The notes beneath the pieces are model-generated. The model had not been told where the DNA came from and made no database searches. It saw only the letters and a program-made list of their open reading frames with translations. A DNA stretch of 64,000 nt, taken from Candidatus Heimdallarchaeota archaeon (lineage in GTDB: Archaea > Asgardarchaeota > Heimdallarchaeia > JABLTI01). The position numbers were made by a program, and so were the translations under genes. The stretch lies in NCBI GenBank assembly GCA_018238155.1, contig JABCTZ010000026.1, forward strand, positions 1 through 64,000. The letters are read 5' to 3'. This document shows positions 913-21,920 of the stretch, one piece after another; the stretch's first letter is position 1, and every line of letters begins with the position of its first letter.

Positions 913-2793
913 TTACCAACCTATTTGTCGTTTCTGTAAAGATTGGGCAAAACCTGCCAAGTCCTTCATACTGGGAGCACTTGTAGATGCATTTGTTGAA
1001 TAGGTTTCTACCCTGTTTTGCTTCATTGAAAACAGTAACCCTTCAAGTTTAATAGCTCCAAGACGATCTAACATAGTAGTTTCTTCTCCACTTATTAATT
1101 TATTATAGGAATCATCTGAATTCTTCTGTGCTTTCTTAACTACTTTATTTAATAACTTGTATCCTTTTTCTTCAGAAATTTGTTGTGCTTTCTCAAATAA
1201 TCTACTAGCAGCTTTTAAATCAGGTTTAAGTAATTCTAATTTGCCTTTGAGTAGATATGTTTTTGCAAGTAAAGAGAAAGCATTTTGTGTTTCACCGATT
1301 TCTACAAGTTTATTTGTTAGTAAGTCTAATTCATCTAGAATGCTTTCATTACCTAATATCTTCAATTCCATGATCAACAGTTCACACAAATTGAAAATAC
1401 CTTCAACGATTCGTTCATAATCTATGACTTCGCCATTGATTATTTCACTAATGATATCTTTAGCAGTTACAAATCGACCTAAAATAGTATAAAGTGAAGC
1501 AAATGATATTTCATCAGAAGTATTTTCTTCAGATTGCAGTACAAATGCTTTTGATAATCGATGAAGCATAGTCACATGCTTATTTTCTTCTTTTTCAGAT
1601 ATATCATAAAGCTTGGTAAGATATTCCTTTGCTTCTTTCATTGAGTTTGTTTCTAAAGAGATCTTGATCAATTGATATATACCTTGAGATGCTTGAACGT
1701 CATTAGTAATCTTCTCAGAGTTTTTCACACTAATTTCTGTGTACTGTTTAGCTTTTCTAAAATCCATTTTTGAGAAATAAACTTCTCCAATAGATAAGTA
1801 TACTTGGGCAATATAGAAAGCATTATCATAATCATTAAATATTTTCTTGGTTTTATTTAGGAATTCAAGTGCAATATCTAATTCTCCTTTTCTTTGATAA
1901 TATTGTCCTATACTTAAATATGAAAGACCAATTCGCATTTTATTATTTACTTCAAGAAACAATTTCAATGCTTTTTGATTATAATAATTAGAAGTATCAA
2001 GTTCACCTTTCAAATAATAGAGATAACCGATATTATGTAATTGATTGGCAATGTTTTCTTTGTTACCTGTTTTTTCATTCAATTTGAGTGCTTTTAAGAA
2101 GAAATCAAGTCCTTGATTAATATCCCCTTTCGTTGAATGAACTATTCCAATATTATTTAATGCCATACTTCTAGAAATAACATTTCCAGATTTTTCCCAA
2201 TGAAATAAAGCCGTGGTGTAATATTTCAATGCTTCATCTAAATTTCCAGAATCACTATGATTATTTCCAAAAAGGTTGTTTAATCTACCTACGAGATCAT
2301 CATTTTTGACATTTTTAGCAATTTTTAATCCTTTGGTATAAAGTTCCACACCAAGTTCAATATCACCACTTTTTGCAGTTACCATTCCATTCATTAAAAT
2401 AATCCTAAGATGAAGCTCATCTATTTGAGATTTATTTATTTTTGTTTCTTTCATTAAAGCTTTTTCTAAAGATTTCAAGTTTTTAGTACACTCTTTGTAA
2501 GAACCAGATCTAAAATGTACCGAAGCAGAGATTATTTTAGCTCTATAATAATAATAGACTAATTCTGGTTTATCTTTTCTTAGTGAAACAATTTGATTAA
2601 CTACTGCCTTATTTTCATCATATTTCCCCATTAAACTATTGGTTTTACTTAATAATAATAAAAGTTCAAGTTTGTTTTCAATACTAAATTCAGAATTATT
2701 CAAACTAGATTCAATATACTTTAAGGCTTCTTCAAGAAGACCTTCGTTTAACAACTGTTTGCTTTCATCTAAGATAATAATTTCTTTGCTCAT
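913..2793 (-). CDS. Tetratricopeptide repeat protein (MalT-like TPRs)
   Basis: Repeated motifs ALNNIGIVH..KGD, LHNIGYLY..KGELD, SIGQYY..KGELD. Confidence 0.85.
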   Translation of the reverse strand: MSKEIIILDESKQLLNEGLLEEALKYIESSLNNSEFSIENKLELLLLLSKTNSLMGKYDENKAVVNQIVSLRKDKPELVYYYYRAKIISASVHFRSGSYKECTKNLKSLEKALMKETKINKSQIDELHLRIILMNGMVTAKSGDIELGVELYTKGLKIAKNVKNDDLVGRLNNLFGNNHSDSGNLDEALKYYTTALFHWEKSGNVISRSMALNNIGIVHSTKGDINQGLDFFLKALKLNEKTGNKENIANQLHNIGYLYYLKGELDTSNYYNQKALKLFLEVNNKMRIGLSYLSIGQYYQRKGELDIALEFLNKTKKIFNDYDNAFYIAQVYLSIGEVYFSKMDFRKAKQYTEISVKNSEKITNDVQASQGIYQLIKISLETNSMKEAKEYLTKLYDISEKEENKHVTMLHRLSKAFVLQSEENTSDEISFASLYTILGRFVTAKDIISEIINGEVIDYERIVEGIFNLCELLIMELKILGNESILDELDLLTNKLVEIGETQNAFSLLAKTYLLKGKLELLKPDLKAASRLFEKAQQISEEKGYKLLNKVVKKAQKNSDDSYNKLISGEETTMLDRLGAIKLEGLLFSMKQNRVETYSTNASTSAPSMKDLAGFAQSLQKRQIGW

Positions 2794-3075
2794 GAAAATT
2801 AGATCCTTTTTTGTCGAGAAATTCTAAACATATGTAGGTATTCAATTTATATAAATCAATTTATTAAGGAAAATGTCGACAAAAAATCAAACCATTTCAA
2901 TATAAATTAATATTCTAATTGTTGTGAAAAAAAATGTTTATAATATAAAAATAGATTTAGAAATTGATAATTCGCTTCATCAATTTCTATTTTTGTAGAA
3001 AATCTATTAAAGCTAATTTTTTGTATTATTAGCTCAACCGTTATCTTAATTAATTCTTTAGCACAATAATATTCG

Positions 3076-3900
3076 GTGTTTAATGATTTGACAATTGTAA
3101 TTTCAGTATCTAGCATTAGAGGAGGAGTTGGAAAATCAAGTTTATCGTTAGAGCTATCGCTATATTTGAGTACAAAAGGTAAAGTATTACTCATCGATAC
3201 AGACTTCTATGCACCTACGATTTTCAATGAAATTAACTCAAGATTAAAGCACAAAGCATTATCTGCTACTAAGCATTTTTCTCGAGATGTTTTCAAAGGA
3301 CTTTGTGAAGTCAAAGATTCAGTTGTAAAAGCTTCTACGAATTTTTATGTTATGTTTAGTGATCCCAAAGTGAATTTATGGGAATTAAGCACAGATATTG
3401 GTACAAAAGAATTTTGGATAGATGAAAATCCAAATAAACCATCTCAAGCGGAATTAGGCTTGGCTAAAATAAAAGAGTATACTGACAAGTTATCTTTTGA
3501 TTTCATTGTATTTGATTCAATGGCAGGAATGGCCTATCCGGTAATATTCTTTAGTTATCTTAGCACATATCCCATTTTTCTTACCAGAGCCTCTCTCCCA
3601 CAAGTAGAGGATGCAGTTGGTTTTATTAATCTAGTAGGCTCTGCAGAAAAACCGATAAATTTAGTTTGGAGCAATGTACCCAATGCGGATTCTTTTCTAC
3701 AAACTACTCGAGCAAAATTGAATCAAGCCATACAAGAAAAATGTGGAAATAGATTCAGAGCTCTAGGTTATATTCCTCGAGATCCGGAATTTGAGAGAGC
3801 AGCATTAGAAGGCAATCTAACAATGATTCCTAATGCTTTGAATTCAGCGTACTTTAAACAATTGAATGTTTTAATAAATACCATGTTCAATAACAAGTAG
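3076..3900 (+). CDS. MinD/ParA-family P-loop ATPase
   Basis: Deviant Walker A RGGVGKSS, VLLIDTD, FDFIVFDS, GYIPRDP. Confidence 0.8.
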   Translation: MFNDLTIVISVSSIRGGVGKSSLSLELSLYLSTKGKVLLIDTDFYAPTIFNEINSRLKHKALSATKHFSRDVFKGLCEVKDSVVKASTNFYVMFSDPKVNLWELSTDIGTKEFWIDENPNKPSQAELGLAKIKEYTDKLSFDFIVFDSMAGMAYPVIFFSYLSTYPIFLTRASLPQVEDAVGFINLVGSAEKPINLVWSNVPNADSFLQTTRAKLNQAIQEKCGNRFRALGYIPRDPEFERAALEGNLTMIPNALNSAYFKQLNVLINTMFNNK

Positions 3901-3907
3901 GCTTTTA

Positions 3908-5263
3908 TTATTTTTCTTCTTCACCAATTGATTTGTGAAAGAGGTTTGAAAGCCCTACGCGTTCTGATTTTTTAATCAGATGATTCTTATCAACTAATTC
4001 TAATTGCTTGCTTTGATTAAATTCGGTCAATACTCCAACAATCTTATCATAAAACCATGAGATTTCAGATAAAATACTTCCATCAACTTCCTCAGGAAAT
4101 GAAATAATGTTCATTTTGAGCTGCTTTACAAGTCCTTTATGTTTCTTATTTAGAAGGGTTTGAATATTCTTACTTTTTTCTTTGGAATGTTTTAGTAGTA
4201 TGGGATGGAACACTTTATGTAGATTTTCTTCCATTCGGTTCAAAATTGTTAGCTCTTTGACGGATTCATTGATGTCAGATCCATAATAAATACCAATTAT
4301 TTCAGTTCTATTTAGATTGGCATTTCTTGCAAAATAATCCAATTTTGAAGGTGTAACAAACCAAAGAATTACTTTTCCAATTTGCATTTTCACAATTTCA
4401 CTCTCAGATTGATATACACGCCACTTAATATTTCTTAAATCTTTAATAGGGGGTATATGATACTGTAAAGCAGTAATTAAATCAAAAAGCGTACCAACCA
4501 ATACTATACTTACAGAAGATTTAACCTGTTTGTCTATAAATCTGAAAGAAGCTTTTGCCAATGAATAAATTGATTCAACTTTTTCGCTAATTGTTAATAA
4601 TTGATGTTCCAAATATCTTTGAATTTGAGATGTTACATCGACATCTGATTGACTTTCAACTGAAAGATTTTGAACTTCATTAATAATCTCTTTTTCTAAA
4701 AGAGAGACTTTTTTATCCGTGAAATTATTTATATCTTGTGCTATTCCGCTTGCAGAACTAAATTTAGTTTTGATCATTCCTTTTGCATGTGTAACCAATG
4801 TTTCAAATTTTCTAGGATAAATTGCTAGAAACAAACTAGCTACAACACTGCCTTGTGAACTTATTCTTTCATCTCTTACAGATTCATCTTTGCTTCTGAA
4901 GACATGAACCAACATATACCAATCCTGATAAGGTATTTCTTCATTGTTTTTATTAGTAAACCCTTGAGTTTTTGGGAGTGGAAAAGGACCAAAAAGATGC
5001 TCGCCTTCAACTTGCTGAATGAATATCGCACTGTAATTTGCAATAAAATTTAACAGTCTTTCAGGGAATTCCTTTCTAGTAGATTCGCTTTGAGCTTTTA
5101 TTTCCATTCCTTTGTCTGTAAAGGAAGCTAAGCTTAGATATAACATAAAATCATCAATATTTTCTACATCATGAAAATCACCTTTTAGAACCGTTTTTTT
5201 AACTTGAAAAGGTGAATCACTTTTTGACCTAATTTTTTTAAATAAATCTCTGACGAAAGACAT
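3908..5263 (-). CDS. Asgard hypothetical protein: longin/uDENN-like domain plus possible degenerate small-GTPase fold
   Basis: 451-aa ORF with upstream GAGG. FGPFPLP...VFRSKDESVRDERI motif is shared with 44554..45336. Confidence 0.55.
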   Translation of the reverse strand: MSFVRDLFKKIRSKSDSPFQVKKTVLKGDFHDVENIDDFMLYLSLASFTDKGMEIKAQSESTRKEFPERLLNFIANYSAIFIQQVEGEHLFGPFPLPKTQGFTNKNNEEIPYQDWYMLVHVFRSKDESVRDERISSQGSVVASLFLAIYPRKFETLVTHAKGMIKTKFSSASGIAQDINNFTDKKVSLLEKEIINEVQNLSVESQSDVDVTSQIQRYLEHQLLTISEKVESIYSLAKASFRFIDKQVKSSVSIVLVGTLFDLITALQYHIPPIKDLRNIKWRVYQSESEIVKMQIGKVILWFVTPSKLDYFARNANLNRTEIIGIYYGSDINESVKELTILNRMEENLHKVFHPILLKHSKEKSKNIQTLLNKKHKGLVKQLKMNIISFPEEVDGSILSEISWFYDKIVGVLTEFNQSKQLELVDKNHLIKKSERVGLSNLFHKSIGEEEK

Positions 5264-16677: not shown

Positions 16678-18168
16678 TCAATCATTTGCGATTTCTTTTC
16701 TTCTTTCAGCAAGAATTTTTTTGTATCTCCTTCTTTTTATAACGTAATACGTTGAGGGAAGAAGTATACCAATTAACACTATTGCGCCAAAAAATATACC
16801 AAAAATAGCTGGCATAGCTTTCTGATAGGCATCTTTATTATAATTCGTTAATTGTTGTTCAAAGGACCATTGACCGATACTATATCTAGCTCGATAATAG
16901 ATTTCATAATAACCGATACGAAAATCTAACCAAACACAATGAACAGTTCCAGAGCTATCACTAACTAAGCGTGGATCATATGCAGGAGTGATAGTAATTG
17001 ATACTTGTTCACCTGCAACCCAGATCCCATTTTCTCTACCTCTAATAGCTATTCCTGTGAATCCCGGCACAGTTTCAGTAATTTCATAAGCCATCCATAA
17101 TGTTGCAATATTATCAAATACTACCTCAGGATTTTCACCATCAATCATTAAATCTTCTTTTTCAAGGGATCTATATGGAGCTACACATTCAAGTTGAGAC
17201 CAATTTTTTTCTGAAGCATAAATTCGATAATGAATATTTCTTGTTCCTAACATTATTGGCGCAATTTCTGTATAATTACTCCAAAAAATGTTTATTTGTT
17301 CATTCCTTTCAACAAAGATTTCAGGATCAAGATTGCAAGTTGAATTAATTGCTACTATATAGCTCATCTGATGTGATTCGTTTTCATTATAGCTTTTGTA
17401 AAAAATATAATTCTTCGAATTAAGCCCTTGAGACCAAACAAAATGACAATTGCCTAAACTATCAATAAATAGATCACTGTTTTGGCAGTTCCCATATGTA
17501 CTATTAGACAATTGAACTATTTCTGACAATGTATCAGAAGTTTGATTATATTTCATAAAATAAACATTGAAAACTCCATCGAGATTACATAACCAAGAAA
17601 ACCAAATAGATTCATTAAAGAAACCCATCTTTGGATATCTATAGAAACTATCTGCTGAGTGCAATGAAAAGACTATTTTTGTATCAAAATCAACTGGATC
17701 TTTTTCTTGTAATTGAATTGTAGAACCAGTTTCATTAATATATGATAAAGCAAGATAGAAATGATCGTTATAAAAATCCATTACTGGATACGATTTTATT
17801 GTATTTCCTTCAACAGGTTGATAAAGATATGTTTTGGTTAGATTCCAATTTCCATTTTCATCAGTTTTTAGTAATACTATTTTCGAGAAACTTCCAATGC
17901 TTTCTTTATATGTTAAATAAAGATTTTCTGAGGAATCTATTGCTAGAGAAGGATTCGAAGGACCATAATTGGCACCTTGTGAATTAGTATTTAGTGATTG
18001 AAATGAAATATCATCACTATTTTTTATTGGATTTGCTTTGGTAATTGTAATTACTAAAAAGAGACTCTGAAAAGAAATATTGGATATGATAAATAAAGCA
18101 AGAATTATTTGTATTAATCTAGATTTCCTCAATAAATACCTGTCCTCTAATAAATAGATACTATTCAC
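16678..18168 (-). CDS. Membrane-anchored extracellular beta-propeller-like protein
   Basis: N-terminal hydrophobic signal, repeats P.L..DS.G..H.VW, C-terminal TM followed by a basic tail, many N-x-S/T sequons. Confidence 0.6.
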   Translation of the reverse strand: MNSIYLLEDRYLLRKSRLIQIILALFIISNISFQSLFLVITITKANPIKNSDDISFQSLNTNSQGANYGPSNPSLAIDSSENLYLTYKESIGSFSKIVLLKTDENGNWNLTKTYLYQPVEGNTIKSYPVMDFYNDHFYLALSYINETGSTIQLQEKDPVDFDTKIVFSLHSADSFYRYPKMGFFNESIWFSWLCNLDGVFNVYFMKYNQTSDTLSEIVQLSNSTYGNCQNSDLFIDSLGNCHFVWSQGLNSKNYIFYKSYNENESHQMSYIVAINSTCNLDPEIFVERNEQINIFWSNYTEIAPIMLGTRNIHYRIYASEKNWSQLECVAPYRSLEKEDLMIDGENPEVVFDNIATLWMAYEITETVPGFTGIAIRGRENGIWVAGEQVSITITPAYDPRLVSDSSGTVHCVWLDFRIGYYEIYYRARYSIGQWSFEQQLTNYNKDAYQKAMPAIFGIFFGAIVLIGILLPSTYYVIKRRRYKKILAERRKEIAND

Positions 18169-18383: not shown

Positions 18384-18986
18384 TTATCGACGATTATAAT
18401 TATTTCTAATTATACAACCATTACTTTCTAAATTACTCAAAATCATCTTCATAGATTTTCTTATGGTTGATCTAAAATCCATATGAATTTCTTCCAAAAG
18501 TTGTAGTTCTAATATTTCAAATGGTAAGGAATGAATACTATTAGATTGTAGAAATAAACGTCTCAGAATGGTTAAACTACCAATTGCACTTGGAAGCGAA
18601 TACAATTGATTATTATTTAGTCGGAGTTCTCTTAAATTCTCTAAATCGCCAATCCATTTCGGAATTTCAGCTAATTGATTAAAACTCATGTCTAAAATTG
18701 ATAATTTGGTCAATTTTTGAATTACATCAGGCACTCTTTTATAATCGTTATTTGCTAGATTTAAAACAATAATCTCTTTTAGTTTAACAAGCTCTTCTGG
18801 AAGATAATCTAAATACAAAGCATTTAGTGATAATGTAATAACATCACCTTCACTTTCAACAAAGTACACTTTTTTATTTGTTGGGAATTCCGTTTCAAGT
18901 GGGATCTCATGTCTTATTATCTCGCTTAAATTGATTAAAATTTGTAGTTGATCTTTTTTGAGAGGACTTGCCAATTTTATTTTCAT
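18384..18986 (-). CDS. Leucine-rich repeat protein
   Basis: LxxLxLxxNxLxxLPxxIGxL repeats. Confidence 0.85.
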   Translation of the reverse strand: MKIKLASPLKKDQLQILINLSEIIRHEIPLETEFPTNKKVYFVESEGDVITLSLNALYLDYLPEELVKLKEIIVLNLANNDYKRVPDVIQKLTKLSILDMSFNQLAEIPKWIGDLENLRELRLNNNQLYSLPSAIGSLTILRRLFLQSNSIHSLPFEILELQLLEEIHMDFRSTIRKSMKMILSNLESNGCIIRNNYNRR

Positions 18987-19097: not shown

Positions 19098-19115
19098 GAG
19101 GAGAAAAAACTCCTC
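19098..19115 (-). terminator. Hairpin closing the longin-Arf-7TM operon
   Basis: GAGGAG-AAAAAA-CTCCTC inverted repeat right after the 7TM stop codon, with a T-run further downstream on the minus strand. Confidence 0.45.
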
Positions 19116-19117
19116 TA

Positions 19118-19936
19118 CTAACTTTTAGAATCAACAATTAGTTTCTGTTCAAACCAAGTCTTCTTTCTGACTCTCTTACGGAACCAATCTGGGAGAAGCC
19201 ACCCAATATACATCATAATATAGGCAGTTAATAGTATCAAACTTCTAAACACCCATAGAGAGAAAGATAAAGCACCACTTTGTAGTTGTAAAGCGTAAAA
19301 AATACCACCCATCATTCCTCCTAGAAAGTAAACCAATAACCCATAGCCAATCATTTGTAATCCTCTTTTTCTAGTGATCTCATTTGTTCGTTTGGCTATA
19401 ATGAATGAACGAATGATAATTCTCAAAAAGATTATTGACTGAAGAACTACTTGAATAACTGTTAGTATTGGTACAAATGAAATATTCTGAAGATCAGCAG
19501 TAAAATCCGTTAAACGCGTTGCCCAAAGAAATCCAGGAATCAAAACATCAACTACAGTTATTGTTAGAAAAACTGCCCAAACTGCTACAATAAAGAAAAA
19601 AGTAACTAATTTAGTAACTTCAGCATCTTTTAGCAGATGTCTGCAAGAGAAAATGTACAAAAAAGATACTGCAGCTAATGCAGTTGTTGTTGCTATTGAA
19701 AGAAAAATTAAAGTAGCGTTATGCTCTTTCAATCCCAAAAGCTGTAATTGATAACTCATGGTAATGGAAAATCTAGAGATAAAAAAGACTATATAAATAA
19801 TCGCAAGCAAAAGTGTTCCTGTTGTTTGCTTTTTTCGGAAATTATTAAGAAGAGCAATAACCAATGTGAAAATAACCGAAGTAAGGATCCAAGAGACAAT
19901 TACATAAATCAATGAAATTGGATCAGCTATTACCAA
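19118..19936 (-). CDS. Seven-transmembrane protein
   Basis: Seven hydrophobic segments, basic cytoplasmic loops and a GWLLPDWFRKR tail. TTG start 1 nt after the GTPase stop, with GGAGGT SD. Confidence 0.7.
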   Translation of the reverse strand: MVIADPISLIYVIVSWILTSVIFTLVIALLNNFRKKQTTGTLLLAIIYIVFFISRFSITMSYQLQLLGLKEHNATLIFLSIATTTALAAVSFLYIFSCRHLLKDAEVTKLVTFFFIVAVWAVFLTITVVDVLIPGFLWATRLTDFTADLQNISFVPILTVIQVVLQSIIFLRIIIRSFIIAKRTNEITRKRGLQMIGYGLLVYFLGGMMGGIFYALQLQSGALSFSLWVFRSLILLTAYIMMYIGWLLPDWFRKRVRKKTWFEQKLIVDSKS

Positions 19937-19937
19937 A

Positions 19938-20474
19938 TCAGCTAACCTCCTTTAGAGATTCTACGAACCACTTGAAAGCTTCATAGATGTTTTCACCTGT
20001 CTTTGCAGAGGTTTCATAGCAGGCCCATTGATAATGTATATCAAGCAAGCCAAATTCTTTAATGAACCTATTTCGTTCTAAACCATCTTGTATATCACTT
20101 TTATGTAAAAGAACAAGTATTTTTATATCCTTGTGTAATTGAGATTTAAGCACATTATGAAAGACATTGTATGATTCTTCAAAACGCATTACATCAGTCT
20201 TATCCACTACATAGACAATACCATCAGATTTTTCGTTTACTTCTGACCAGAGCTGCCTAAAATCCTCTTGTCCACCCAAATCGAAAACATTTATCTCAAT
20301 TTTTCCGGAATGTATAGATTCACCTCTATTGATACCCATTGTTGGTTGTGTTTTAACGAATTCTCCAGTTTCCAAGAATTTAACAATGGTAGTTTTCCCG
20401 GCATTGTCTAAACCACAGATTGTGACATCAACTTCTCTGTTCTTGCTTTTAAAAAGATTAAATAAAAATGACAA
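19938..20474 (-). CDS. Arf/Arl/Sar-family small GTPase
   Basis: Amphipathic N-helix MSFLFNLFKSK, G1 GLDNAGKT, G2 PTMG, G3 DLGGQ, G4 HKSD, G5 TSAKTG. Confidence 0.92.
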   Translation of the reverse strand: MSFLFNLFKSKNREVDVTICGLDNAGKTTIVKFLETGEFVKTQPTMGINRGESIHSGKIEINVFDLGGQEDFRQLWSEVNEKSDGIVYVVDKTDVMRFEESYNVFHNVLKSQLHKDIKILVLLHKSDIQDGLERNRFIKEFGLLDIHYQWACYETSAKTGENIYEAFKWFVESLKEVS

Positions 20475-20493
20475 GGTACGAGTCTCCTTCTAG

Positions 20494-21003
20494 TTATCTC
20501 CAAAGATCATCAGAAAAGGCTTTTGATTCATCAACAACCTTTTTTTCCTTCTCATCAGAGAAGTCAATTGAGAGAGAAGTTGTGGAACTAATCTTAATGT
20601 TAATTCTACCTTTACTAAATCCATCATATAGATTTGGAAGTATTTCCTTCATAATCTCCATTCGAAGAAAAGCTTTCCCTTCAAGCTCATTTACAATCAC
20701 CGAGAAGAGCTTTCTTATTCCATCTATATCATAATTCATATTTGGAAAAATAGCAACTATAGTTCCGATGTTATCTCTCCCTTTCTCTTGAGGGAGCTTA
20801 AAAACGTAACTTGAATAATAGAAATTACCAATACCTGCAGAAGAAAAATCGCCTGATTTTGCTCCCATTGGCATGCTTTTATAGGTTATCTCACTTAGAA
20901 CTTCATCTGGTAAAACTTTGGGATGAGTCTCAACAAGTTCTAATCCTTTTTTACCCATTTGAACTAAACATAAACTTAACGGTTTGATAATTACAACCAC
21001 CAT
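20494..21003 (-). CDS. Longin/uDENN-like domain protein
   Basis: Pattern SLCLVQM-GKKG-LELVETHP-helix-SMPMG-three strands-two helices fits the longin topology. Confidence 0.55.
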   Translation of the reverse strand: MVVVIIKPLSLCLVQMGKKGLELVETHPKVLPDEVLSEITYKSMPMGAKSGDFSSAGIGNFYYSSYVFKLPQEKGRDNIGTIVAIFPNMNYDIDGIRKLFSVIVNELEGKAFLRMEIMKEILPNLYDGFSKGRINIKISSTTSLSIDFSDEKEKKVVDESKAFSDDLWR

Positions 21004-21141
21004 CTTTTAATTCTAAATTAATTAAAACATCGAATAATCCAATATAAAGATTATTTTTGCGACATAAAGCAAATTCTATTTTCGTGAGAAAACTATTGGT
21101 TGTTGTAAAGTCTAAAAATCAAACATTCTAAGTAAATTTTG

Positions 21142-21179
21142 AAAAGAAAAAAAATTGGAACTTAAAATCAGTTCCAATT
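21142..21179 (-). terminator. Hairpin plus U-tract terminator of the SagB-like gene
   Basis: AATTGGAACT-N7-AGTTCCAATT followed by a T-run on the minus strand. Confidence 0.6.
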
Positions 21180-21185
21180 ATTCAG

Positions 21186-21920
21186 TTATTTTTTACCCAA
21201 AGACGCAAGATAGATTACGAATAGTGATTCACCATCTAAATCAACAGCTTCATTGATCTTATCATCATAGAATGCGGCTATTGCACATACACCTGAATCA
21301 ATACTTTCTGCTGCTAAATACAGATTTTGACAAACATGCCCAACATCTAAGTGTAGATATCGATAACTTCTTTCACTATATCTCCATTCTAGACGATATG
21401 GTACAGCTACCCAAATAAAAGTAACATTTCCATCCTTAACCATTTTTTGACCATAAGATGCTTCAACCAGTTTTTCTCCAATTCCTTTATCCATTATATA
21501 TTCAAGCAATTTATGTTCAAGAGCTAAGTATCTATATAACCCTGGTTTTAATCCTTCAACATTGTTAATAAGAATCAATGTTTCAAAAGCATGTCTTGCA
21601 CCTGCGGAAGGAACCGTTCTCAAAGTATATGGTGGATGAGTCTTCTTTACACCTTGCGTAGCCCAAAGTAACCAAGCTAACTCTTCCAAAGTTAGGGGTT
21701 TATCTGCGTACTTTCTAACACTTTTTCTTTCTTCAATTGCTTTTCTCAAATCTATTTCTGGTATTTCAATTTTATCCGGTTTTGGTAAATCAATACTCTT
21801 TTTTGATTTATCATAGTCAAGTTCAAGAGGTGGATGAGATACTCGTTTTCTCTGATCAGATTCAGAAAGATGTTTGTATTTTGTCATTTCCATAAATATA
21901 TGCCCTATATGTTTAACCAA
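21186..21920 (-). CDS. SagB/ThcOx-family dehydrogenase (nitroreductase fold)
   Basis: RKSVRKY, RTVPSAGARH, WRYSERSYRY..LDVGHVCQNLYL. Confidence 0.88.
   Translation of the reverse strand: MVKHIGHIFMEMTKYKHLSESDQRKRVSHPPLELDYDKSKKSIDLPKPDKIEIPEIDLRKAIEERKSVRKYADKPLTLEELAWLLWATQGVKKTHPPYTLRTVPSAGARHAFETLILINNVEGLKPGLYRYLALEHKLLEYIMDKGIGEKLVEASYGQKMVKDGNVTFIWVAVPYRLEWRYSERSYRYLHLDVGHVCQNLYLAAESIDSGVCAIAAFYDDKINEAVDLDGESLFVIYLASLGKK

Follow-up and report, generated by a model that had tools for sequence, protein, structure and literature searches.

The window analysed here comprises 64,000 nucleotides (nt) of the genome of a Candidatus Heimdallarchaeota archaeon (assembly GCA_018238155.1, contig JABCTZ010000026.1, positions 1 to 64,000, referred to below as contig C20) and carries, on its minus strand, three consecutive genes for a longin-fold protein, an Arf-family small GTPase of the ArfR type and a seven-transmembrane (7TM) protein. 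We propose that the three genes constitute one transcription unit for a membrane-bound small-GTPase switch, in which a longin of the NPRL2 type is docked on the 7TM protein and most likely serves as the GTPase-activating protein (GAP) for the ArfR; taken as a whole, we give this proposal about an even chance. It builds on what we were able to show, namely the anatomy of the operon, synteny, co-divergence of the three proteins, their folds, and the conserved residues together with the side of the membrane on which they lie. An earlier note on this DNA had seen here a candidate module of receptor, guanine nucleotide exchange factor (GEF) and G protein. The three bioinformatic points on which that proposal could have foundered were all tested: the gene order is conserved, gene 1 has a longin fold and the membrane protein has the seven-helix topology that had been expected. 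The three genes are as follows.

Gene 1 (longin): 20494..21003, minus strand, open reading frame (ORF) of 169 amino acids (aa)
Gene 2 (ArfR GTPase): 19938..20474, minus strand, ORF of 178 aa with a TTG start
Gene 3 (7TM protein): 19118..19936, minus strand, ORF of 272 aa with a TTG start

The three-gene unit is conserved, multiplied and co-divergent

The genome to which the window belongs (4.08 Mb, ~31% GC, closest public relatives labelled Heimdallarchaeota) contains six full longin-Arf-7TM triads, located on contigs C20, C15, C41, C10, C29 and C39, as well as one longin+7TM pair that lacks the Arf gene (C21:5502-6928, locus L017). When loci were fetched from other assemblies by the longin alone, all eight of the non-redundant loci recovered had an Arf and a 7TM gene downstream, in the same order. 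In a survey of 400 genomes of the phylum, the families with strong hits were the window's own (9/11 genomes) and one other within its class, and nearly all strong longin hits were followed by a 7TM hit on the same strand 50-610 nt downstream. The distance from the longin to the 7TM gene takes one of two forms: it is either 548-608 nt, the space of an Arf gene, or 51-159 nt, with no Arf. Altogether, the 48 non-redundant loci include ~29 triads from several genera and 11 longin+7TM pairs, and the unit that the earlier note had described recurs across Heimdall-type genomes. Even at the distant loci L020 and L021, longins with hhalign E-values of 1e-19 to 1e-20 precede 7TM hits of 1e-13 to 1e-17.

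The three proteins share their evolutionary history. Pairwise distance matrices computed for each of them over 25 triads correlate with r of 0.84-0.91 (Mantel p ≤ 0.0005), and it follows that the triads were copied and diverged as whole units; duplication of the complete module has given rise to six or seven copies per genome. Within this common history the 7TM protein is the fastest evolving (mean identity 29%), followed by the longin (48%) and the Arf (55%). The idea that the adjacency is meaningless, three unrelated genes having been packed together by chance, can draw on the general compactness of archaeal genomes and on nothing else. It is excluded by synteny, and we assign it a probability close to nil: the order is the same in the triads of several genera and is kept by the 11 pairs, six paralogous copies lie in one genome, the three proteins co-diverge, and gene 3 begins 1 nt past the stop codon of gene 2.

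The Arf-less pairs (n = 11: L017, L039-L046, L020 and L021) have gaps of 51-159 nt, and the longin and 7TM genes of L020 and L021 directly adjoin each other. In one pair subtype the 7TM protein lacks the C-terminal basic helix. These pairs may use an Arf encoded elsewhere. Two triads, both in the related genome G082, look damaged: at L027 (G082:C60) the Arf ORF is cut to ~74 aa, and at G082:C49:46178-48083 the longin and 7TM matches contain in-frame TGA stops. Decay of these copies or errors in the assembly may account for this.

In other Asgard families, remote longins are clustered with ~300-aa Arf-domain proteins and with unrelated proteins of 5-7 transmembrane (TM) segments, so that the theme of a longin, an Arf and a polytopic membrane protein recurs independently there. 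The co-oriented clusters at L056:12662-15624, L057:1068-3835 and L058:27-2123 and 2591-4563 combine a remote longin, which has the G/N-P motif and the Arg discussed below, with an Arf-domain fusion protein of ~300 aa, and they also hold one or two 4-7-TM proteins unrelated to the gene 3 family. The membrane proteins beside these distant Asgard longins have no detectable relation to the gene 3 family (hhalign probability < 1%). The C-terminal domain of the ~300-aa fusion protein was considered as a possible member of the gene 1 longin family, and comparison ruled this out.

Gene 1 resembles the longin of NPRL2

Sequence searches did not place gene 1 in a known family. Neither gene 1 alone nor its family of 38 members matched any Pfam entry, even at E 10; none of the 38 matched NPR2, NPR3 or Folliculin at E ≤ 10; and a profile of the longin family run against PDB sequences returned chance hits only (nanobodies at E 0.4). 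The AlphaFold2 (AF2) model of gene 1, with a mean predicted local distance difference test (pLDDT) of 79, has the longin topology bb-a-bbb-aa (E10-17, E20-27, H33-43, E53-58, E61-70, E78-86, H93-109 and H115-131) and terminates in two short strands and a disordered tail.

Structural comparison consistently led to the longin domains of GATOR1. Foldseek put NPRL2 and NPRL3 of GATOR1, together with yeast Npr2 and Npr3, on top (E 3e-7). The best VIA match was the NPRL2 chain 9o5a_H (Z 15.8, root-mean-square deviation 2.8 Å over 143 residues), and the match spans NPRL2 residues 5-160. Six NPRL2 entries scored Z 13.6-15.8 and yeast Npr2 14.2-14.4, followed by a Lokiarchaeal roadblock-longin protein (13.5) and chains of the FLCN complex (about 11.1-11.8); Ykt6, the AP sigma and mu subunits, DENND1 and Mon1-Ccz1 were all at Z 8-10. 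In the ESM Atlas, gene 1 found its own archaeal cluster (248 members) first and then the eukaryotic clusters of NPRL2, Npr2 and NPRL3, with NPRL2/Npr2 at a TM-score of 0.69-0.71. The earlier note had called gene 1 longin/uDENN-like. The longin half of this description is borne out by AF2, Foldseek and VIA alike, and the uDENN half has to be given up: DENND1 reached a Z of 10.1 versus 15.8 for NPRL2, and a protein of 169 aa has no room for a DENN core or a dDENN domain. Our search for fused longin relatives of at least 337 aa found none, which is weak evidence, and the ORF list holds no gene for a second longin subunit within the three-gene unit.

Gene 1 carries the signature KSMPxGAKxGDF and a C-terminal DDLW. 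We assessed residue conservation over 48 non-redundant family members, made up of 27 longins from triads, 11 from pairs and 10 distant relatives. Arg76 is present in 27/27 triads, 11/11 pairs and 7/10 distant relatives, and Pro28 in every one of them (27/27, 11/11 and 10/10; 48/48 loci). Gly20 is kept in 26/27 triads, 10/11 pairs and 5/10 distant relatives. At position 21, Leu predominates in triads (25/27) and pairs (9/11) and Pro in the distant relatives (7/10); among the 38 triad and pair longins, Pro occurs at this position in one pair longin only. Seven of the ten distant relatives thereby have G/N-P, that is, a GP motif, at positions 20-21. The corresponding features of NPRL2 are G20-P21, P28 and R78-N79, the latter just before strand 5 (ahead of ALLFNLGFV), and those of gene 1 are G20-L21, P28 and R76-D77-N78, again just before strand 5 (ahead of IGTIVAIF). 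In the AF2 model Arg76 sits in the loop between E61-70 and E78-86. According to a 2025 study (PMC12290439), the GP motif is specific to longins of the GAP type and, with the arginine finger, their hallmark; the study also found it in some Asgard longins. Judged on its modelled fold, gene 1 appears to be a longin of the NPRL2 (GAP) type and not a uDENN-like protein, because of the fold scores, the location of Arg76, Gly20 and Pro28 at NPRL2-like positions, and the GP motif of the distant relatives.

Gene 2 encodes an ArfR-type GTPase

The earlier note had described gene 2 as an Arf GTPase with an amphipathic N-terminus, Ser2 and motifs G1-G5, and this description holds in full. Gene 2 matches Pfam Arf (PF00025) over practically its entire length (profile positions 5-173 of 174; E 2e-41; 141.6 bits against a cut-off of 22.3) and, with E 1.8e-9, also Pfam SRPRB. 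The motifs GLDNAGKT, PTMGIN, DLGGQ (with the catalytic Gln69), HKSD (NKxD in paralogues) and TSAK correspond to G1-G5, and their alignment columns are invariant. The alignment contains no intrinsic Arg alongside Gln69.

The N-terminus, MSFLFNLFKSK, is predicted to form an amphipathic helix, and M1, S2, F3, L7 and F8 are invariant in it (MSFxxxLF). Ser2, in place of the myristoylatable Gly2, is found in all 13 of the 13 aligned Arf sequences. The closest solved chain is 8oun_A, that of GerdArfR1 (E 1.7e-27), which starts with LSFLQRLF and is likewise without a Gly ahead of this motif. Experiments on GerdArfR1 have demonstrated an Arf-type switch between the GDP and GTP states, as well as membrane binding for which the amphipathic helix is required (the work behind PDB 8OUK-8OUN); the interswitch toggle, in which GTP binding releases this helix, is established for this relative alone. 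The triad Arfs form one clade with a support of 97/99. Nested within this clade is the product of a stand-alone Arf gene (G000 C13:86298-86855, 185 aa) that has neither a longin nor a 7TM gene beside it; this Arf could act in trans as the partner of the Arf-less pairs.

Gene 3 encodes a seven-helix protein with a conserved cytoplasmic face

Pfam offers no family for gene 3, even when 14 family members are searched at E 10, and its weaker 7TM relatives are also without any. The seven TM segments proposed in the earlier note are recovered both as seven hydropathy peaks and as seven helices of the AF2 model (pLDDT 64), which adds a short C-terminal amphipathic helix. Lys and Arg residues number 3/3/5/8 in the segments on one side of the membrane and 0/1/1/0 on the other, and this positive-inside bias leads us to predict a receptor-like topology with the N-terminus outside and the C-terminus inside (N-out/C-in).

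Conservation in the family is markedly one-sided. Over 34 aligned members, the mean frequency of the top residue is 0.60 in the cytoplasmic parts, 0.39 in the membrane helices and 0.27 in the extracellular parts; the conserved part of the family is thus made up of the cytoplasmic loops and the helix that follows TM7. Four cytoplasmic motifs stand out.

Loop 1: NFxKKxTxGT
Cytoplasmic end of TM3: YxFxxRHxLxD
Loop 3: RKRG
End of TM7 and amphipathic helix: YxGWxxPxWxxRxRxKxW

Conserved polar residues of the kind found inside transporter bundles are absent from the 34 aligned members. That divergence is fastest in the extracellular parts of the 7TM protein fits paralogue-specific inputs to a common switch mechanism, and it is from this conservation pattern that we infer a putative sensing role for the protein.

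In structural searches, G-protein-coupled receptors (GPCRs) came out on top. VIA, run on the pLDDT-64 model, gave Z-scores of 17.4 for GPR156 and 16.4 for GABA-B, with rhodopsins at ~15 and TMEM87A at 14.6; the best E-value in Foldseek was 7.5e-3 and nothing reached 0.001. None of the GPCR families in Pfam is matched by the gene 3 family, one of whose 14 members touches Srsx at E 0.56. The resemblance to a GPCR precursor put forward in the earlier note thus survives as 7TM topology and as an analogy: no GPCR family is recognised by sequence, the Foldseek values are weak and come from a low-confidence model, and rhodopsins score nearly as well, for which reasons we did not adopt a GPCR relationship. 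On the model, gene 3 is best described as a generic seven-helix receptor-like bundle, with no implication of GPCR homology.

Other identities were examined as well. Microbial rhodopsin was rejected, as the 34 aligned family members have no Lys column in TM7. A feature search of the atlas pointed to a cluster labelled 'histidine kinase N-terminal 7TM region', a lead that sequence did not confirm: no aligned 7TM member matches HisKA_7TM (PF16927) at E ≤ 10, and no fused kinase domain is present. The nearest ESM Atlas cluster to the 7TM model is the fungal DUF7702/DUF3112 family of uncharacterised function (TM-score 0.70, 235 residues aligned), which possibly represents a eukaryotic look-alike, as far as the model can be trusted. 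An exhaustive profile search with the 7TM family yielded 135 cluster representatives, 48 of them below 1e-30, and those that are named are Asgard; only two longer proteins (380 and 398 aa) were among them, both without a Pfam domain.

Operon anatomy and neighbouring genes

The structural details given in the earlier note, that is, three co-oriented genes with 19-nt and 1-nt gaps, Shine-Dalgarno motifs before genes 2 and 3 and a closing hairpin, are all present in the sequence. The TAA stop codon of gene 1 occupies 20496-20494 and gene 2 starts at 20474, leaving 19 nt; the TGA stop codon of gene 2 occupies 19940-19938 and gene 3 starts at 19936, leaving 1 nt. The following elements accompany the genes.

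Candidate AT-rich promoter region: 21011..21050, minus strand, with TATA-like stretches read directly from the DNA
TATA-like stretches of the candidate promoter: minus strand, TTTATATT at 21048-21041 and TTTTAATTAATTTA closer to the start codon
GGAG ribosome-binding site of gene 2: 20484..20487, minus strand, 10-13 nt 5' of the start, within the 19-nt spacer
GGAGG ribosome-binding site of gene 3: 19946..19950, minus strand, within the final codons of gene 2
Closing hairpin GAGGAG-TTTTTT-CTCCTC with T-rich tail: 19098..19115, minus strand, terminator-like, 3' of gene 3
Terminator-like hairpin at the end of the upstream nitroreductase gene: 21153..21179, minus strand, 5' boundary of the three-gene unit

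The closing hairpin has a perfect 6-bp stem and a folding energy of -10.1 kcal/mol (z -2.1). With a hairpin on either flank, the unit is bracketed on both sides, and the longin, Arf and 7TM genes look like one bracketed transcription unit.

Upstream lies a gene of the nitroreductase family (21186-21920, minus strand), to which the hairpin at 21179-21153 belongs; the distant longin locus L054 also adjoins a nitroreductase gene, which is probably a coincidence. Downstream, 131 nt from the operon and past the closing hairpin, is a gene for a 200-aa leucine-rich-repeat (LRR) protein (18384-18986, minus strand). Its position beside the operon is retained only in the closest relative (L004:7133-7735), and among the several LRR paralogues of the genome are two as long as 1102 and 1326 aa. 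Further on, 16678-18168 (minus strand) encodes a protein of 496 aa that matches no Pfam family and has one TM helix, at its C-terminus; it is rich in Asn, Ser, Tyr and Trp, has a repetitive look and is perhaps a surface protein of the beta-propeller kind.

Discussion

In the mechanism that we propose, the 7TM protein would lie in the membrane in the N-out/C-in orientation and present its conserved cytoplasmic face, formed by loops 1-3 and the basic helix after TM7. The NPRL2-type longin would be docked at or near this face and regulate the ArfR encoded between the two genes, most likely as a GAP that supplies its invariant Arg76 to the active site of the ArfR with its Gln69, just as NPRL2 Arg78, FLCN Arg164 and SMCR8 Arg147 act as the arginine fingers of eukaryotic longin GAP complexes. 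With GTP bound, ArfR would dock on the membrane of the 7TM protein by inserting its N-terminal amphipathic helix, as experiments have shown for its relative GerdArfR1, and the 7TM protein would serve as a platform or a sensor. We infer that longin, ArfR and 7TM protein bind each other physically, that the longin has GAP activity and that the 7TM protein may sense a signal. A complex prediction for longin, ArfR and GTP with the 7TM protein as the partner scored 0.64; two controls in which this partner was replaced scored 0.00, but the control with a replaced Arf scored 0.45, which is too close for the prediction to speak either for or against binding.

A number of points weigh against a longin acting as GAP beneath a sensing 7TM protein. 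The equivalence of Arg76 and NPRL2 Arg78 is one of position and of the aligned ranges of the structural match, not one of residue-level superposition, and the GP motif is half retained in gene 1 (Gly20 followed by Leu21). Arg76 is equally invariant in the 11 Arf-less pairs, so it may be structural or may act on an Arf encoded elsewhere. Eukaryotic longin GAPs are heterodimers of two different longins within larger complexes, whereas here there is a single small longin. The confidence of the 7TM model is low (pLDDT 64), and extracellular loops commonly diverge fast in membrane proteins, which is no proof of sensing.

Two other roles for the longin have to be set against the GAP role. The first is that of a GEF, as in Mon1-Ccz1, TRAPP and DENN proteins, with the 7TM protein as a receptor that drives GTP loading of the Arf; this was also the view of the earlier note. 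Synteny agrees equally with a GEF and a GAP, most of the characterised longin-based regulators are GEFs (PMC12290439), and DENND1-Rab35, Mon1-Ccz1 and Fuzzy-Inturned are among the structural matches of gene 1 (Z 7.6-10.1). We nevertheless favour a GAP because the fold is markedly nearer to the GAP longins NPRL2, NPRL3 and FLCN (Z about 11.5-15.8) than to the GEF longins (~8-10), because Arg76, Gly20 and Pro28 line up with NPRL2, with the invariant Arg at the position of the Arg78 finger, and because the GTPase brings a catalytic Gln of its own and depends on an external source for the arginine. As the unit, moreover, encodes neither a DENN core nor a second longin subunit, we consider a GEF unlikely.

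The second is that of an effector or adaptor that binds ArfR-GTP, in the manner of SRX of SR-alpha with the Arf-like SR-beta or of AP sigma and the N-terminal domain of AP mu, both longin folds, in the AP complexes that Arf1 recruits, and couples the GTPase to the 7TM protein, which would then be a cargo, a transporter or a membrane landmark and not a sensor. Longins of the AP sigma, AP mu and Ykt6 types do match gene 1 structurally (Z 8-10), and gene 2 does match SRPRB (E 1.8e-9). The existence of longin+7TM pairs that lack an Arf suggests that the tie between these two proteins is the older core, and other, unrelated polytopic proteins fill the membrane position in other Asgard families. However, an adaptor leaves unexplained both the absolute conservation of Arg76 and the fold score of NPRL2, which is well above those of the adaptor longins; a transporter, in particular, is difficult to reconcile with a 7TM protein in which only the cytoplasmic face is conserved and the bundle has no conserved polar residues inside. 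We regard this role, too, as rather unlikely, if worth keeping in mind.

The proposal could be extended to receptor-coupled signalling, in which each paralogous 7TM protein would sense its own external or membrane cue and control the nucleotide state of its own Arf via the docked longin. The triads would then be an archaeal counterpart, and possibly a forerunner, of two eukaryotic systems with a membrane protein that gates a GTPase of the Arf/Rag/G-alpha branch, namely lysosomal GATOR1-Rag-transceptor nutrient sensing and GPCR-G-alpha signalling. This extension is speculative and we think it improbable.

Asgard archaea possess many eukaryote-like small GTPases and many longin and roadblock proteins, and the operon family described here pairs specific cognates. 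Of the regulators of Asgard Arfs, Zhu et al. (2025) write that they 'remain to be established', and a 2025 paper in Traffic raises the question of which GTPases, ArfR or Rag, partner the Asgard longins of the GAP type. With the triads, archaeal Arf proteins gain their first concrete candidates for partners, namely a membrane protein and a longin of the NPRL2 type whose Arg76 is a candidate arginine finger. Tran et al. (2024) state that the small GTPase genes of the Loki strain MK-D1 do not, as a rule, share operons with genes for longin or roadblock proteins, and that genome layout is generally of no help in matching GTPases to their regulators. The operon family is a clear exception to this, with cognate trios in six or seven putatively insulated copies per genome. 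ArfR GTPases and NPRL2-like Asgard longins were already known, as were, from a 2026 preprint, Asgard 7TM proteins that cluster structurally with GPCRs; the passages of the preprint that we found, which deal with Asgard 7TM and 'class C GPCR' structural clusters, do not mention a gene link to GTPases or longins. Our literature searches turned up no paper that describes a longin-Arf-7TM gene cluster, and what appears to be new here is the link of longin, ArfR and 7TM protein at the level of genes. Should the longin prove to be an Arf GAP, the catalytic mechanism of the GATOR1, FLCN and C9orf72 type would predate eukaryotes and would have begun tied to a polytopic membrane protein.

How does the triad compare with systems that are already understood? 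In eukaryotes, Rag and Arf GTPases are served by the longin GAP complexes GATOR1 (NPRL2-NPRL3-DEPDC5), FLCN-FNIP and C9orf72-SMCR8. As in GATOR1, gene 1 has a longin fold, which of all solved chains is nearest to NPRL2 (Z 15.8); a conserved Arg immediately precedes strand 5, Gly20 and Pro28 occupy NPRL2-like positions, and the proposed client is a GTPase of the Arf/Rag superfamily with a catalytic Gln. As in the Rag system, where SLC38A9 is a polytopic membrane protein in such a role, the proposed action would take place at a membrane beside a polytopic membrane protein. Unlike GATOR1, gene 1 is a single 169-aa protein without the C-terminal domain of NPRL2, a paired second longin or DEPDC5. 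It lacks a sequence match to Pfam NPR2, and the Pro of the GP motif is replaced by Leu. The client, moreover, is a single-domain ArfR and not a Rag heterodimer, and the whole is encoded in an operon that has been duplicated many times.

The likeness to a GPCR and its G protein lies in a seven-helix N-out/C-in protein whose cytoplasmic loops are short and conserved and whose TM7 is followed by a basic amphipathic helix; its gene is tied to that of a GTPase from the branch that relates Arf and G-alpha, and GPCRs are its top structural matches. However, gene 3 has no sequence relation to any GPCR family and its scores are those of a generic 7-helix bundle; gene 2, unlike G-alpha, encodes a small Arf that lacks a helical insert as well as beta-gamma partners; and a longin stands between receptor and GTPase, with no indication of exchange activity in the 7TM protein. 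The link of the triad to GPCRs and G-alpha therefore stays an analogy.

Among the Asgard ArfR/AArf proteins (GerdArfR1 and HodArfR1; PDB 8OUK-8OUN; Vargova et al., Zhu et al. 2025), gene 2 takes its place as a member. It shares with GerdArfR1 the N-terminal hydrophobic pattern, Gln69 and the Arf-type motifs, but while published ArfRs were treated in isolation, gene 2 is part of a separate clade whose genes nearly always lie between those for a longin and a 7TM protein. Finally, the adjacency of a Ras-superfamily GTPase gene and a gene for a regulator of the roadblock/longin superfamily (cf. PMC4316618) is familiar from MglA-MglB, where MglB is a roadblock GAP, and from the Asgard operon of LAMTOR1-like, Rab-like and DENN genes (Liu et al. 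2021). The triad differs from both in that the regulator is a longin of the NPRL2 type, the GTPase is of the Arf type and a third, fixed place is taken by an integral 7TM protein. It is, in this sense, a module of a small GTPase and a longin/roadblock regulator to which a fixed integral-membrane member has been added and which has undergone a striking expansion of paralogues.

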